A stretch of 37,983 bases of DNA from an uncultured Deinococcales bacterium (GCA_964244895.1 CAXTKV010000023.1:1-37983); one strand, 5' to 3'; counted from the first letter of the stretch, positions 24,980 to 33,961 are shown. Made by a program: numbers and translations. Notes: generated from the sequence alone by a model not told the origin.

Positions 24980-25398
24980 GCCCTCGAGCCTAACCTGTCG
25001 TGCGTTCCGTTCACGTCTCAACGGTGCCTCGCCGCAGTCATGCCAGAACAGGATCATCTCGGACAGACCACTGGCCTCAAAGGTTTTTATGGAGGCTAAA
25101 GTCTTACGAATAGGCGTCACGAGTCACTTCAAAAAATAAAGCATTGCGTTCAAAAGGGAATAAACATAAAGAGCGGAATTCGTAGCTCGATTCAAAAAAG
25201 TCGAAAAAATACGAGCAGTCCCAAAACAGCCCAAGTACAGAAAACCTTGTCCAGAACAGAATTTTTAGCGTTTTTGCCTTTCAAAACCCTGTCATTATTT
25301 TGTAAGTCCCAGGCTGGGAGTCCTCGGGATCGCGGGCTTCACGAAGTTAGCTTGATCACACGAAAGCAGAAAGCTTTCAGAATCCCTGGGAGGGGAAC

Positions 25399-25431
25399 AT
25401 GAAGAACAACGGATGGGCAACAGGCGGTTAA
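25399..25431 (+). CDS. Micro-peptide 1, MKNNGWATGG (10 aa)
   Basis: ATG AAG AAC AAC GGA TGG GCA ACA GGC GGT TAA preceded by a strong SD (GGGAGGGG); paralogous to micro-peptide 3. Not in the ORF track. Confidence 0.65.
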   Translation: MKNNGWATGG

Positions 25432-25493
25432 GCTCCACCCCATAATCGATTCTTCACTTCAATTCTTGCCAACGTTTTTGAAAGAGGTTGACC

Positions 25494-25631
25494 GTGTTCG
25501 TTCCAAAGAATCCCACATCCAAAACTGCTGATCAGTCCAAGGGCTCTTCCTCGAACAAACAGGACGTTCGGGCATCGGTCAAAACGACGAAGGTGGCGGG
25601 TCGGGTCTGGGCGGGCGGTTGGGCACACTGA
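25494..25631 (+). CDS. Small peptide 2, 45 aa, MFVPKNPTSKTADQSKGSSSNKQDVRASVKTTKVAGRVWAGGWAH
   Basis: GTG start after AAAGAGGT SD; hydrophilic Lys/Ser/Thr-rich N-terminus; C-terminal WAGGWA matches the flanking micro-peptides. Confidence 0.55.
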   Translation: MFVPKNPTSKTADQSKGSSSNKQDVRASVKTTKVAGRVWAGGWAH

Positions 25632-25679
25632 AGTTCAAGCACTACATACATTAAATTCTTTAACCCTGGGAGGGGACAC

Positions 25680-25721
25680 ATGAAAACTTACGGTTGGGCA
25701 GCTGGCAACGGCGGCGGTTAA
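25680..25721 (+). CDS. Micro-peptide 3, MKTYGWAAGNGGG (13 aa)
   Basis: Same CCCTGGGAGGGGA leader/SD as peptide 1; ATG AAA ACT TAC GGT TGG GCA GCT GGC AAC GGC GGC GGT TAA. Confidence 0.65.
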   Translation: MKTYGWAAGNGGG

Positions 25722-25751
25722 GTTTTACCCGATATACACACGTTCATCTTC

Positions 25752-25786
25752 CGAGGGCGATTCATAAAAATCGCCCTCGTGCTTTT
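25752..25786 (+). terminator. Hairpin/terminator closing the peptide cassette
   Basis: 11-bp perfect stem CGAGGGCGATT / AATCGCCCTCG, 6-nt loop, followed by TGCTTTT. Confidence 0.65.
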
Positions 25787-25813
25787 GACACGTGGTCAGC
25801 GCGTCGGTAAGAA
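25785..25813 (+). promoter_or_regulatory. Candidate sigma70 promoter of the TPR/HD-GYP gene
   Basis: TTGACA, 17 nt, TAAGAA. An alternative extended -10 (TGGTATTGT) lies near 25839-25847. Confidence 0.35.
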
Positions 25814-25872
25814 AGCTGTGAGCTATTGCACATCATTCTGGTATTGTCTAGTCCCCTGGCTCGACTCCTGAC

Positions 25873-28344
25873 ATGAGTGACGTTTTCGAAACAACTTCCC
25901 ACTTACCCGACGAGACGCTGACTCGGGCTGCTGATATGGATTTGTTTGCCTTAGAGCGAATCCAGGTTGACGATCTGATTCGTGATGCAAATATCTTTAT
26001 CCTGGATCAGCCGCAAAAAGCGCTTGAACTTTCCGAGACAGCTCGAGAGATAGCCACTGTTGTAAATTACGGATCTGGTATTGCCTGGAGTAATTACCGA
26101 ATCGGTGAATGCATCATCAACTTGGGCGATTTTCCGCGAGCTCTTAGCCATTTTCGCGTTTCGTTAGAACTTGCGCAAATCCAAGAAGATATACCTTTAA
26201 CTTCTTGGTCTATTTACAAAATTGGATTCTGCTATTTTCGTTTTGGAGAACTCGAACGTGCTTCAAAAAATTTCTCAAAGAGCCTTGAATTAGCTGAGCT
26301 AGTAAGTGATCTGAATTTAATTTGTAGGACTTATAACTTAATGGCGGGAATTTGTTACAAAAACGGTAAATATTTAGAAGCTATTGATTTATTGTATAAA
26401 TCTGTTAACGAAAATACGAGCGAAAAGACACTTACTTTAAAAGTTGCTAGCTTAAGTAACCTTGGATTAATTTTCGCTGATCTTGGGAATTACGAAAAAT
26501 CGATTGAATGCCTCAAAGAATCGTATACAAACGCTAAGGATGGCGCGGACAAAATCGCTGTCCTGGACGCCTTGATGAACATGGCGAACGTCTACGAAAA
26601 AATGGACAGCAAAAGAATGGCTTTGGATTTCGCGGAACGAGCGTTGGTGCTCAGCAAGGAAATCGGTAGCAAATTTCACGAAATCCACGTGCTCGAGACG
26701 ATCGCGTTGTTGCGTTTGAAACAGAACGAACCGGAACAGGCGCTGGCGCATTTCGAGGAAGCGCTGATTCTGACCGAAGAAAGCACGTACCAGGAGGGTC
26801 AGGTCGTCGTGCTAGCGGGCCTCGGGCGGGTTCACGACAGTCTGGCGCGTCACACGGACGCTCTGAATTACTATGGGAAATCGCTCGAGATTGCGCGGCA
26901 AATTGAGGATTTTCAGGGGCAGGTGTCAGCCTTGACAGGAATCGGTTCGGCCTACTTGAAGATGGACAACCATCACGCGGCGCTCAGGGCGCTCGAGGAA
27001 GCGCTCGAGCGCGCCATTCACGCGGATTTAAAGCAATCGGTGATCGAGTGCCACCTGAAGCTCGCGGAGGCGTACAAGACGGGTGGAAATTACCTCAAGG
27101 CCTTAGAGCATTTCGAGGTGCATCACGTTCTGGACAGGGATCACCGCGAGTTCATGGCTGAACAGCGCCGTCAGGTGCTCGAGGTCGAGTTGGGGCTCGA
27201 GTCGGAACGCAAGGCGCGCGACGACGCGGAAGGTCTGGTCAAGGTTCGCACACAGGAACTCGAGTTCGCGCACATCGAGGTGGCGGAACGTTTGGCGAAC
27301 GCCGCCGAGTACCGCGACGACAAGACGGGTGCGCACACGGAACGCGTCGGTTGGCTTTCGGCGCACATCGCCAAGGCGTTGGGTTGGCGGGCCGATCAGG
27401 TTGATCTGATTCGTCTGGCGGCGCGTTTGCACGACATCGGCAAGATCGGCATTCCGGACGGCATCTTGCTCAAGCCCGCCGCGTTGACCCCGGACGAATT
27501 CCGACAGATGGAGAGCCACACGGTGATCGGGGCGAGAATCCTGTCGGCGGGGCATTCGGACATCCTGAAACTGGCGGAATCGATCGCGGAAAGTCATCAC
27601 GAGCGCTGGGACGGCACCGGGTACCCGCACCAGTTGTGCGGCGATGAAATCCCGATGTCCGGTCGGATCGTGGCCGTAGCTGACGTGTTCGATGCCCTGA
27701 CCCGCGAACGACCCTACAAGCGTCCGTGGACGCTCGAGGAGGCGCTGGCTGAAATTGAGCGTCAGTCCGGGCGGCAGTTCGATCCGCGCGTGGTGGATGC
27801 GGCCCGTCAGGTGATCACGCCGGATGCGATCTCGAGCATGGAGATCGAGTTGATCAGGAATTTCATGATGCCGGACGCGGACGCCAACGATCCGATGGGG
27901 CCGGGCATCGAGGCTCGAGAGCCGGAAGTCTACCGCGATCCGGCGACGCTGCTGGCCAACGGCGAGGCCTTCGAGATGGACTGGCGCAACGAGGTGGCGC
28001 GCGCCGGGCGCACCGGCAGCGAGATCATCAGGCTGCATTTCGATCTCGAGGGGCTCGAGGGGTTGCGCCGGGTCGGGCGTTTGACGACGCTGTCCTCGAT
28101 CCGTCGGGCGTTCGCGGACGAGATGCGCAGCCGATTGCTGCACCTGGGTCGCTTGTACCGCGTCAAGGACGATGGGTTCCTGGTTCTGGTGGTTGGTCAG
28201 CCGGTCGGTCACGCTCAGGTGGATTTTGATCAGGCCGTCAAGCTGTTCATGGGCTCGTGGGCGGCGCGCTTCCCGACGGTGCTGGTGCAGTTCGGCGTGG
28301 AAAGCATCAAACCTCAGGAACACGATGTCGTCCCTGCGGCCTGA
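25873..28344 (+). CDS. TPR-repeat HD-GYP cyclic-dinucleotide phosphodiesterase with degenerate GGDEF-like tail
   Basis: About 9-10 TPR-like repeats (e.g. SLSNLGLIFADLGNYEKSIECL); HD-GYP motifs EYRDDKTGAHTERV, LHDIGKIGIPD, HHERWDGTGYP, ADVFDAL, RPYK, QFDP. Confidence 0.92.
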   Translation: MSDVFETTSHLPDETLTRAADMDLFALERIQVDDLIRDANIFILDQPQKALELSETAREIATVVNYGSGIAWSNYRIGECIINLGDFPRALSHFRVSLELAQIQEDIPLTSWSIYKIGFCYFRFGELERASKNFSKSLELAELVSDLNLICRTYNLMAGICYKNGKYLEAIDLLYKSVNENTSEKTLTLKVASLSNLGLIFADLGNYEKSIECLKESYTNAKDGADKIAVLDALMNMANVYEKMDSKRMALDFAERALVLSKEIGSKFHEIHVLETIALLRLKQNEPEQALAHFEEALILTEESTYQEGQVVVLAGLGRVHDSLARHTDALNYYGKSLEIARQIEDFQGQVSALTGIGSAYLKMDNHHAALRALEEALERAIHADLKQSVIECHLKLAEAYKTGGNYLKALEHFEVHHVLDRDHREFMAEQRRQVLEVELGLESERKARDDAEGLVKVRTQELEFAHIEVAERLANAAEYRDDKTGAHTERVGWLSAHIAKALGWRADQVDLIRLAARLHDIGKIGIPDGILLKPAALTPDEFRQMESHTVIGARILSAGHSDILKLAESIAESHHERWDGTGYPHQLCGDEIPMSGRIVAVADVFDALTRERPYKRPWTLEEALAEIERQSGRQFDPRVVDAARQVITPDAISSMEIELIRNFMMPDADANDPMGPGIEAREPEVYRDPATLLANGEAFEMDWRNEVARAGRTGSEIIRLHFDLEGLEGLRRVGRLTTLSSIRRAFADEMRSRLLHLGRLYRVKDDGFLVLVVGQPVGHAQVDFDQAVKLFMGSWAARFPTVLVQFGVESIKPQEHDVVPAA

Positions 28345-28494: not shown

Positions 28495-30039
28495 GTGAAC
28501 CCTCGACCCGCCGAATTGCACCGCAACCCAACCGATCCGCGCTCGATCGCGACCGGCCAGCCATCTCAGGTTCGGGATGCGGATCTGACGCGCATGTTGC
28601 GGTTGCTCGGGCGGTCGTTGCGCGCGCCGGTGGCCGCCGTGGTGACGGATCGGCGCATCGTGGTGCGCGGCCTCAAATTGGAACGGGCGCGCGGTCTGAG
28701 GGAACTGATGGCGCTGGTTCCTCGGACGGGTCTGATCTCGGTCTCGAACCTGGCGGCGCTCCCACACTGGAACGCGGAGTGGCTCGAGGACAGCGAACTG
28801 CGCTTTCTGGCGGGCACGATGATCAGTGGTTCTCGAGCGGCGCTTGTGGTGCTCGATTCGCGCTTGCGCGGCCCGTTGACGCCCACCGAGCGCGCCGTGC
28901 TGACGGAGTTTGCCGGGCTGGCCGAGAGTTTGCTGCGCGATGATCCGCAATCTGCCCCTAAAACGCCCGTTTTGAGCGCGCCGAACACCGATGCGCGGGC
29001 GTCAGGTCAGGGCTTGCTCGAGCTGGCGCGGTTGAGCGCGGTGCGGGTGGACGCGTCCGGAGCGATCACCGAACTGGTCGGAGCATCGTTTGCGGCGCTC
29101 GGGTTGACGACCGCGCAGGTGGGCAAATCCACGTCCGAAGTGTTTGCCCAATGGCCCGCGCTGACGCTGGCTTTTGACCGCGCCCTGGAAGGCTATTTCA
29201 ATGTCGCCTCGCTCGAGCCCGCGCTGCCGCTGGAGTTGCATTGCCGTCCAGTGCGGCTCGACGGCATGCTGGCTGGCGCGGTCGGTGCGCTCTTCGAGAT
29301 CGGGTCGGATGACCGCGCCCGGAGGTCGGACGCGCGTTTCGAGGGCGGCTTTTCGGATCGGATTCGGTCGGTACGAACAGAAGATGCGACGCTCGAGGAC
29401 GCGAAACCCCGCGCGATCGCGGAGGAACGCGCACGCATCGCGCGCGAGATGCACGATGGTTTCGGCAAGGACGTGTTTGGACTGGCGATGATCCTCGAAT
29501 CGTTGGCGGAAAGCCAGCGCGGGCGCGCCCTTCAGAGCGAGCTGGTGAGGCACGCGCAGACGGCCAGACGGCTCGGGCACGAGGCCCGTGCGCTGACGCA
29601 GGGTTTGCGCCAGGTCGCCCCGGTCGGACTGGCGCAACGCGCGCGCGATGTGGCGGCGCAATTCCAATCTGAACAACCCGGCAGCCCCCGGACGCATATT
29701 TCTTTGCCGGAGCACCTGCCGGAACTCGACGGGAGCGCGGTTCACGAACTGAGCCGCGTGATCCGCGAGGCCCTCGAGAACGTGCGCCGGCACGCGCGCG
29801 CCAGAAACGTCTGGGTCAGCCTCGGGTTGCAAGACCGCCAGATGGTCTTGTGGATCGATGACGATGGCAGGGGCTTCGCGGCGCTCAGCGCGCCGGGACG
29901 CTACGGCGTGTTGGGGATGCGCGAACGCGTCGAATTGCTCGGTGGTCGTTTTGCCCTGGAGCCCAGCCCGCGCGGTGGCGTGCGCGTCGAAGCTCGGGTG
30001 CCGCTGGACGGGATCGAGGAACATGCCAGCCGCGTTTGA
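28495..30039 (+). CDS. Soluble sensor histidine kinase (HisKA_3/NarX type)
   Basis: ERARIAREMHD H-box, EALENVRRHA N-box, DDGRGF, GVLGMRER; GAF-like and PAS-like N-terminal segments; no TM helix seen. Confidence 0.88.
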   Translation: MNPRPAELHRNPTDPRSIATGQPSQVRDADLTRMLRLLGRSLRAPVAAVVTDRRIVVRGLKLERARGLRELMALVPRTGLISVSNLAALPHWNAEWLEDSELRFLAGTMISGSRAALVVLDSRLRGPLTPTERAVLTEFAGLAESLLRDDPQSAPKTPVLSAPNTDARASGQGLLELARLSAVRVDASGAITELVGASFAALGLTTAQVGKSTSEVFAQWPALTLAFDRALEGYFNVASLEPALPLELHCRPVRLDGMLAGAVGALFEIGSDDRARRSDARFEGGFSDRIRSVRTEDATLEDAKPRAIAEERARIAREMHDGFGKDVFGLAMILESLAESQRGRALQSELVRHAQTARRLGHEARALTQGLRQVAPVGLAQRARDVAAQFQSEQPGSPRTHISLPEHLPELDGSAVHELSRVIREALENVRRHARARNVWVSLGLQDRQMVLWIDDDGRGFAALSAPGRYGVLGMRERVELLGGRFALEPSPRGGVRVEARVPLDGIEEHASRV

Positions 30040-30694
30040 ACCGATCCGTATCCTGATCGTCGACGACAGCTTTATCGTCCGTCAGGGCCTGCGCGTCAGC
30101 CTCACGGATGATCGCTTTGTGGTCATCGGTGAGGCCACCACGGGCCTCGAAGGGCTCGAGCGAGCCGAATCGCTCGAACCGGACGTGATCCTGATGGACG
30201 TGCGCATGCCCGACCTGGACGGTATTTCCGCCACCCGATCCGTGATCGAACGCGACCCGGACGCGCGCATCATCATCCTGACCTGGTCGGAAAACGGTCA
30301 GAACCTGCTGTCCGCCGTCAAAGCGGGCGCGAAAGGCTACCTGGTGCACGGCTCGTTCACCATCGAGGAGTTGCGCGCCGCGATTCAGACCGTGTATGAC
30401 GGTGGCGCAGCGATTTCGCCGACGCTGGCGCCGTTGCTGCTGGACGCTTTTCGCAACAATTCCAGAAGCTCCGACGGCACCGATTCGCGTTCCGTTTCCG
30501 CCCTGACCCCGCGCGAGCAGGACATCCTGGCGTTGATCCGCGAGAACTACACCAACCGCCAGATCTCTGAGCGCCTGGGCTTGGCCGAAAAAACCGTCAA
30601 GAACTACATCTCGAACATTTATTCGAAGTTGATGGTCACGGACCGTCAGGCTGCGGCGCGCGTTCCGTTGCGGGTCGGCAGCGACGACCGTTGA
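30023..30694 (+). CDS. NarL/LuxR-family response regulator
   Basis: ILIVDD, DVILMDVRMP, LTPREQDIL, TVKNYISNIYSKL; overlaps the kinase 3' end; GAGGA SD. Confidence 0.93.
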   Translation: MPAAFEPIRILIVDDSFIVRQGLRVSLTDDRFVVIGEATTGLEGLERAESLEPDVILMDVRMPDLDGISATRSVIERDPDARIIILTWSENGQNLLSAVKAGAKGYLVHGSFTIEELRAAIQTVYDGGAAISPTLAPLLLDAFRNNSRSSDGTDSRSVSALTPREQDILALIRENYTNRQISERLGLAEKTVKNYISNIYSKLMVTDRQAAARVPLRVGSDDR

Positions 30695-32931: not shown

Positions 32932-33855
32932 TCAGTACCCGAGCGCCCGGATGCTGCCCTGCGAGAGTTCATCGCGCGGGGTGCGGCGGCGGCGATCCAG
33001 ATGCCAGCCCTGCGGCAGCGTCGGCGCGGTGCGGAGCGTGCCGCTGACGCGCTTGCGGATCGTGTCCAACCGCCCGAGTTGCTCCAGGAGCGCGGCGGGG
33101 TCGTTGCGGTTGAAGCGCATCTCGCGCCCGTCGCGCGTTTTGCCCTCGTCGGGAATACCGCCGTATTCCAGCGTGATCGTCAACGCGCGCGCAGACCGTT
33201 CCAGGACGCGTTCCAGCAGGGCGTAATCCGCCTCGGCCATCGGCAGGTGGCGGTCGCGCAAGCCATCCTTCTCGAGTCGCGGGCCGGAGACGTGAATCTC
33301 GAGCGCCCGCTCGAGCGGCAGGGCGTTCAGGTACGCGATTTCATGCTCGTCGCGGTGGTGCGCCGCCACGCGGGCGTGCGCGATGTCCAACAGGAAACCC
33401 GCGCCGGACGCGTCCAGCGCCGCCGCGATGAACTCCGGGTCGGTCACGAAACGCGGGCGTTCAGACCAGGCGTAAGTCGGCATGTTCTCGAGCAGAATGT
33501 CCAGCTTGGTGATTTCCTGCAGGCGCTGAACGTTCTCGCGGACGCGCTCCAGGGCAATTTCCGGGTTGATCTGGCCCTCGAAATCTTCCGGCTGGAAGTC
33601 CAGGTGAACGCTCAGGTACGGCGTGCCGCTCGCGTCGATCAAGTCTTGCAGTTCTTCCACGCCGGGAATGTCAATCATGCCGATCCGGTACGGCGGTCCC
33701 CAGCCGTGCAGCAGCACTGGCTTCAAGCCTCTGGCCTGCGCGAGTTGCGCCCTCGCGTCGCGCTCGAGGGGAATCTTAAGGAAATCCACGGGTGCGTGCA
33801 CCTTCCGGAGCAGCTTCTCGAGGGCTTGTGACCAGTTCGCGGCGAGTCGGATCAT
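32932..33855 (-). CDS. DUF692 family multinuclear non-heme iron oxidase (MNIO)
   Basis: LLHG, SVHL, LLENMP, FLLDIAHA, EIHVSG, DRH, LEY metal-ligand pattern; GGAGG SD before ATG 33855. Confidence 0.82.
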   Translation of the reverse strand: MIRLAANWSQALEKLLRKVHAPVDFLKIPLERDARAQLAQARGLKPVLLHGWGPPYRIGMIDIPGVEELQDLIDASGTPYLSVHLDFQPEDFEGQINPEIALERVRENVQRLQEITKLDILLENMPTYAWSERPRFVTDPEFIAAALDASGAGFLLDIAHARVAAHHRDEHEIAYLNALPLERALEIHVSGPRLEKDGLRDRHLPMAEADYALLERVLERSARALTITLEYGGIPDEGKTRDGREMRFNRNDPAALLEQLGRLDTIRKRVSGTLRTAPTLPQGWHLDRRRRTPRDELSQGSIRALGY

Positions 33856-33898
33856 ACGCGGGCCTCCGGGCGTCCAGCACTGTGTGTTGAGTGCTATA

Positions 33899-33931
33899 AG
33901 TATGTTACACATCATACTCAAAATAGTATGA
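33899..33931. promoter_or_regulatory. Candidate operator, three AGTATG/CATACT half-sites
   Basis: AGTATG-N8-CATACT-N6-AGTATG in the AT-rich stretch upstream of the DUF692 gene. Confidence 0.4.
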
Positions 33932-33961
33932 AATTGGTGCGCCGACCTCACACTCGCAATG

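Follow-up and report, generated by a model that had tools for sequence, protein, structure and literature searches.

Three tryptophan-containing peptide genes beside a TPR and HD-GYP sensor gene in a Deinococcales genome: candidate ligands of a predicted c-di-GMP phosphodiesterase

We analysed a 37,983-nucleotide (nt) stretch of DNA from an uncultured Deinococcales bacterium (GCA_964244895.1, CAXTKV010000023.1:1-37983, the whole of which we refer to as the window), in which the apparently empty gap between a sixA-like gene and a gene for an 823-amino-acid (aa) tetratricopeptide repeat (TPR) and HD-GYP protein, the sensor, encodes three small open-reading frames (ORFs), all in the same orientation. 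The reading towards which we lean is that the adjacent sensor binds these peptides, or products made directly from them, and that its phosphodiesterase activity is set in this way. For it speak the frames, their Shine-Dalgarno (SD) sequences, the pattern of selection, the domains of the sensor and the equivalence of the gene slot, which in most relatives of the sensor is taken by a subtilase with tandem tryptophan repeats.

The peptide cassette and its conservation

A first-pass annotation of the sequence had proposed three co-oriented ORFs in this gap, each with an SD of its own, and coordinates and translations match (Table 1). Pairing with the anti-SD amounts to -10.7, -6.5 and -10.7 kcal/mol for ORF1, ORF2 and ORF3 respectively, and to -1.5 for the sensor gene. 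ORF1 and ORF3 represent a duplicated unit, as they have a 13-nt SD-containing block in common and end alike. The 11-bp hairpin placed after the ORFs is present as well and is likely the terminator that closes the cassette, whilst a consensus scan found no sigma-70-type promoter. The G-W-A motif ascribed to all three peptides held only in part: W-A plus small residues is common to them, but G-W-A as such is not the core. Their lack of a Sec signal was borne out, no hydrophobic stretch being seen by inspection in ORF1-ORF3, and has a precedent in the RopB-SIP system (PMC6565748, PMC10518010).

Micro-ORFs were scored as frames of 8-50 aa with SD pairing of -6 or lower and W[AS] within the last nine residues, a criterion chosen after the locus and the subtilase units had been seen. 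The genome contains 196 such ORFs, and only in this gap do three occur in a row. Dinucleotide shuffling of the gap (5000 shuffles) gave no such ORF in 4905 cases, one in 95 and two or more in none, where the real gap holds three.

Related-strain contigs from two runs of one study (X1 and X3) aligned to the cassette, the X1 comparison listing 20 of the 23 substitutions counted on the piece. No listed change falls in the 48 nt of the first SD and ORF1 in either run; the spacer after ORF1 carries six substitutions and one insertion in 50 nt in the related strain. ORF2 exhibited seven substitutions in X1, one Ser-to-Thr and six synonymous (2.0 expected, P 0.0025), with its last 13 codons unchanged, and ORF3 exhibited five substitutions and a net 9-nt deletion that remains in frame, the result of which, derived by hand, spells the ORF1 peptide. 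In X1 the 3' arm of the hairpin is retained and the loop differs (loose end). Because ORF1 is unchanged, the ORF2 changes are mostly synonymous and the ORF3 indel is in frame, the frames are under selection, and this comparison of sequences supports all three peptides as selected coding sequences.

The sensor protein

Pfam matches (TPR_12/TPR_1 and HD_5), the structure model (predicted local distance difference test 96 and about ten helix pairs in the TPR domain) and the motifs agree with the annotated 823-aa protein of nine to ten TPRs and an intact HD-GYP domain, but a degenerate GGDEF domain had been missed. The latter is recognised by a profile from the GGDEF domains of 41 relatives (E 7.5e-13), and a Pfam search of the region gave no match. 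The HD, HH, D and GYP motifs of HD-GYP phosphodiesterases are all present, and the domain is predicted to degrade cyclic di-GMP (c-di-GMP). The sensor has the metal-binding and GYP motifs of RpfG-type phosphodiesterases, whereas its input is a TPR superhelix rather than a receiver domain.

Three asparagines sit on successive helices of the TPR model and are retained in 88 (N155), 86 (N196) and 57 (N236) of 91 aligned rows. Such a ladder is typical of peptide-binding grooves and a groove is predicted here; in RopB, asparagines of this kind line the peptide pocket (PMC6565748). The best match in structure comparison was LGN (Z 31.5, root-mean-square deviation 4.9, 317 aligned), followed by NprR (Z 26.7, 5.9, 350) and RapI (Z 26.6, 6.1, 356); the NprR match (E 6e-24) lies below LGN/PINS, and a repeat fold yields many high scores.

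Orthologues of the sensor share 52-65% identity in residues 31-190 versus 60-93% in later residues. In the X1 contig residues 39-189 fall below the 80% alignment threshold, and the remaining 2164 nt show 124 differences (~94% identity). One strain pair (n = 1) therefore differs in both a peptide (ORF3) and the N-terminal repeats of the sensor, which is suggestive. Within the variable TPR stretch, GC content falls to as little as 31% at 26201-26400 (genome 63%), which suggests segment exchange.

Table 1. Features of the cassette, the sensor gene and the related arrays
Feature	Position	Strand	Evidence or remark
ORF1 SD block, 13 nt	25384..25396	+	exact repeat at 25664-25676; anti-SD -10.7 kcal/mol
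ORF1, 10 aa, MKNNGWATGG	25399..25431	+	frame and translation check
ORF2, 45 aa, GTG start, C-terminus GRVWAG-GWAH	25494..25631	+	translation check; polar, without signal sequence
ORF3 SD block	25664..25676	+	same 13 nt as ORF1 SD block; anti-SD -10.7 kcal/mol
ORF3, 13 aa (MKTYGWAAGNGGG), diverged ORF1 duplicate	25680..25721	+	translation check, repeat comparison
Hairpin, 11-bp stem, T-rich tail	25752..25779	+	folding z -6.0 versus shuffles
Sensor, 823 aa, TPR + HD-GYP + degenerate GGDEF	25873..28344	+	domain searches
TPR superhelix, residues 38-447, conserved N155, N196, N236	25984..27213	+	structure model, alignment
Variable N-terminal TPR stretch, residues 39-189, low GC	25988..26437	+	X1 comparison
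HD-GYP domain with EYRDD, HT, HDIGK, HHERWDGTGYP, ADVFD, RPYK	27292..27792	+	Pfam HD_5, motif check
Degenerate GGDEF, KDDGF at active-site loop, ~residues 686-783	27928..28221	+	relatives' profile
Seven 13-aa micro-ORFs, MKK-led, W third from end	G000 (this genome) C18:36502-37281 (L064)		between TPR/BTAD regulator and MFS transporter
Three 13-aa micro-ORFs, MKK-led, W third from end, same setting, another genus	G001:C591 (L067:1415-1630)		syntenic with C18 array
ORFs downstream of TPR/BTAD regulators	L496-L498, L500, L501, L513-L515, L522		TPR/BTAD regulator loci

The gene slot in relatives and a second array

A TPR profile search of 363 genomes of the order (at most five candidates scored per genome, G325 included in the tally and used nowhere else) gave matches to a TPR-GGDEF/TPR-HD-GYP family in 279 genomes, and the sensor matches members of this family over its full length (E 1e-110 to 1e-92). 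We examined 130 of the 150 places among the matches listed, a set that is biased, since most of the sequences behind the profile are subtilase-linked, and in which kin are not independent. Upstream of the TPR gene, 105 of these loci carry a co-oriented and two a divergent subtilase, 19 carry none and four came without DNA. Tandem units with the consensus G-x(3-4)-W-[AS]-G lie between the pro-region and the catalytic domain, at least two of them in 88 of the first 97 subtilases scored; where two units are identical, their codons show synonymous differences in 283 of 310 pairs, and a lipobox-like motif occurs in 62 of 72 full-length proteases. The gap upstream of the sensor in the window has micro-ORFs only and no repeat-bearing subtilase, the sixA-like gene being situated further upstream. 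The peptide-TPR signalling proposed by the first-pass annotation gains from the selected peptides, the asparagine ladder and a related W motif upstream of most family members, but the element that recurs upstream is a subtilase with repeats rather than a micro-ORF. Ranked by a profile of the subtilase units among 13,861 candidate ORFs, ORF2 is 20th.

Other arrangements of the slot were also seen. About 700 nt upstream of a TPR gene (L159, G011:C975) lies a subtilase remnant with a signal-like start and two units that are followed by a stop; it may represent a step on the way from the protease-borne to the free form of the peptide. In D. radiodurans DRR11 (L531, NZ_OV024759.1:252241-256115) the subtilase is followed by a sensor whose TPR and HD portions have a transposase gene between them.

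A second set of micro-ORFs, on contig C18 of this genome and in another genus (Table 1), connects the free peptides to the proteases: four of the nine distinct C-terminal heptamers in the two arrays are identical to subtilase units of other genomes, where the two nulls give 0.96 (P 0.01) and 0.20 (P below 1 in 20,000), which ties free micro-ORFs directly to protease units. The array in the other genus also includes a 59-aa signal-less ORF ending W-A-S, so that its short and long ORFs mirror the layout in the window. The C18 array has in addition an ORF of 48 aa whose N-terminus is signal-like. In 9 of 30 TPR/BTAD regulator loci an ORF of 44-66 aa lies ~100 nt downstream of the regulator; its N-terminus is again signal-like and its tail often rich in Pro, and these ORFs are a candidate for a further class of peptides paired with regulators. 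At L502 (G005:C146) the ORF downstream of the regulator is 61 aa long and signal-less, with a strong SD and internal GSKNNVT repeats.

Searches for the cassette elsewhere returned little. The first-pass annotation had looked for support to GW-containing micro-ORFs upstream of homologous TPR enzymes; no micro-ORF of the window's type stood beside another TPR enzyme among the matches listed. Family scans gave the C18 and G001 arrays plus chance matches only; a strict scan of 221 genomes of the order gave only the C18 array in frame, G001 lying below its completeness filter; a metagenome search with the single TPR region gave 61 pattern-positive stretches and no relative; and 20 further TPR regulators of this genome have no W micro-ORFs in their flanks. 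Four close orthologues of the sensor (69-96% identity) came without readable flanking DNA. GWA matches in G016 and G012 were rejected as relatives of the cassette because they are part of another element, a conserved intergenic one (L366, G016:C429; L373, G012:C52) with a short GWA frame, a hairpin, a strong SD and a basic-hydrophobic frame; it has no TPR gene nearby and may be akin to a type I toxin-antitoxin leader. A literature search, with most subscription papers outside it, found no paper naming the input of the TPR-GGDEF/TPR-HD-GYP family and none on the Deinococcota subtilase-repeat/TPR module, and the main text of PMC12700828, as far as it is available, mentions neither Deinococcus nor GGDEF or HD-GYP.

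Proposed mechanism and competing readings

From this arrangement we infer translation, processing, transport, binding, the direction of control and the substrate. The W peptides would bind the putative asparagine-lined groove of the adjacent sensor, of which the N-terminal TPRs likely set specificity, and binding would switch the HD-GYP domain. In relatives, an exported subtilase may free its tandem repeats during self-processing and the freed repeats may re-enter by oligopeptide permease; this genome has 22 SBP_bac_5 matches for Opp-type binding proteins. At this locus, with protease and export signal gone, the ribosome would make the peptides directly, the ORF1 and ORF3 products being nearly mature and that of ORF2 being trimmed to its C-terminal unit, and they may act in the producing cell or exit by a Sec-independent route. 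The cassette is real, selected and probably a signal, a variant of peptide-TPR signalling, and likely represents a Deinococcota peptide/TPR/c-di-GMP module in a form that dispenses with the protease.

Several known systems resemble it. In the RRNPP(A) systems (Rap-Phr, NprR-NprX, PlcR-PapR, AimR-AimP) a cytosolic TPR protein with an Asn-lined groove likewise adjoins a short peptide gene, but here, as had been pointed out in the first-pass annotation, the output differs: the effector is a C-terminal HD-GYP/GGDEF instead of an N-terminal helix-turn-helix (HTH) or Rap bundle, and the TPRs begin near residue 38. The peptides also have no Sec propeptide, the host belongs to the Deinococcota, and LGN outscores the RRNPP receptors in structure comparison of this TPR domain. 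The leaderless RopB-SIP type shares an ultrasmall ORF led by a ribosome-binding site beside a TPR receptor, the missing secretion signal and Trp; that type (PMC6565748, PMC10518010) comprises hydrophobic 8-10-mers and HTH receptors in Firmicutes, whereas the peptides here are polar, Lys/Gly/Asn-rich, three to a cassette and beside an enzyme. With the subtilase-repeat/TPR module the locus shares the TPR family, the gene slot and a W-[AS]-small motif; it differs in that protease and export signal are missing and each peptide has a gene of its own, and the fit of ORF1 and ORF3 to the unit is loose. By analogy, the locus likely works like RRNPP and leaderless-peptide signalling and is a member of neither, as effector, peptide chemistry and host differ.

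A number of results weigh against the peptides being ligands of the adjacent sensor. W micro-ORFs occur in none of the 19 subtilase-free family loci, and pattern scans of genome contigs (at least 120 loci, 12 in frame) and metagenome contigs (at least 120 loci, 24 short and in frame) found none adjoining a TPR-family or subtilase gene among the matches listed. A protein database search found no homologue of ORF2, and no exporter gene is adjacent within the window. The TPR region is 25-29% identical to those of subtilase-linked relatives, and the sensor groups weakly with the genome's own C138 sensor (support 0.80, long branches, 67 sequences used), whose own unit begins G-W. ORF1 and ORF3 rank 438th and 460th by the unit profile (top 3% only), so that ORF2 is well linked to the subtilase units and these two only loosely. 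Beyond 25553, which takes in the second half of ORF2, ORF3 and the TPR stretch, the strain evidence is one contig at depth 6. Finally, four of the five repeat-bearing subtilases in this genome (C21, C141, C9, C5) have no TPR enzyme as a neighbour, nor has one in D. deserti, and adjacency of subtilase and TPR gene is therefore not obligatory. These four subtilases carry GW(T)(A/S)WSG repeats, and two of them end in what looks like a ricin-type domain; the genome's paralogous subtilase matches 18 plasmid records, every one of them from Deinococcus.

The orphan subtilases also bear on the strongest rival, which we consider unlikely, that the peptides are real and act in trans, jamming or mimicking the signals of TPR sensors elsewhere, for instance the C138 paralogue or sensors in neighbouring species, or binding subtilases as mimics of their pro-region. 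The seven different peptides of the C18 array, with four matches to the subtilase units of other species, would suit such a role, as would the G-W with which the genome's own subtilase units start, as in ORF1 and ORF3; the cassette nevertheless occupies the exact subtilase slot, and the X1 strain differs in ORF3 and the sensor's N-terminal TPRs alike.

A Trp attenuator leader peptide was rejected, there being neither tandem Trp codons nor a Trp-related operon downstream. The same observations make it improbable that the ORFs are upstream regulatory frames, possibly Trp-sensing, whose translation controls read-through into the sensor gene past the hairpin at 25752. Such a device would fit the strong SDs, the Trp codons and the position of the hairpin 30 nt beyond ORF3, and attenuator leader peptides are reported in D. 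deserti (PMC4007540), but no alternative pairing was seen in the folded pieces, the amino acids of ORF2 are under selection at a distance of over 150 nt from the hairpin, and in C18 the peptides that share the motif stand downstream of their regulator.

To a similarly small degree we credit the view that the ORFs encode peptides destined for modification (cross-linking or prenylation of Trp) by enzymes encoded elsewhere, the sensor being unrelated or sensing the product. Some precursors of ribosomally synthesised and post-translationally modified peptides resemble the cassette in their basic N-terminus and Trp core. An MbnB/TglH/ChrH-family protein (PF05114, E 2.5e-18) is encoded at 32932-33951 (-), and an MFS transporter follows the C18 array; the former gene, however, lies 4.6 kb past the sensor gene on the opposite strand, and the surroundings of the cassette and of the arrays showed no modifying enzyme. 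Least probable of all is that the cassette is a decaying, functionless remnant of a lost subtilase gene, for although the L159 remnant stops right after two units, the substitution pattern largely refutes this, the cassette has duplicated SDs of its own, a synonymous bias and an in-frame indel, and other subtilase sequence was not noted in the gap.

Returning to the peptides as ligands of the adjacent sensor, a wider picture is conceivable, if still short of probable: a Deinococcota peptide language may set c-di-GMP through TPR enzymes, its protease-packed repeats freed into signal-less micro-genes in one family, with ligand and receptor alleles changing together here and an array spelling the codes of several other species elsewhere. 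The locus offers synthesisable 10- and 13-residue candidates for direct peptide control of c-di-GMP turnover, with the window and X1 alleles as a natural pair for testing such control, and it suggests a route from a protease-borne signal to a stand-alone micro-gene overlooked by annotation. Directly downstream of the sensor gene and co-oriented with it, the window encodes a HisKA_3 sensor kinase and a LuxR-type response regulator (28495-30694, +).

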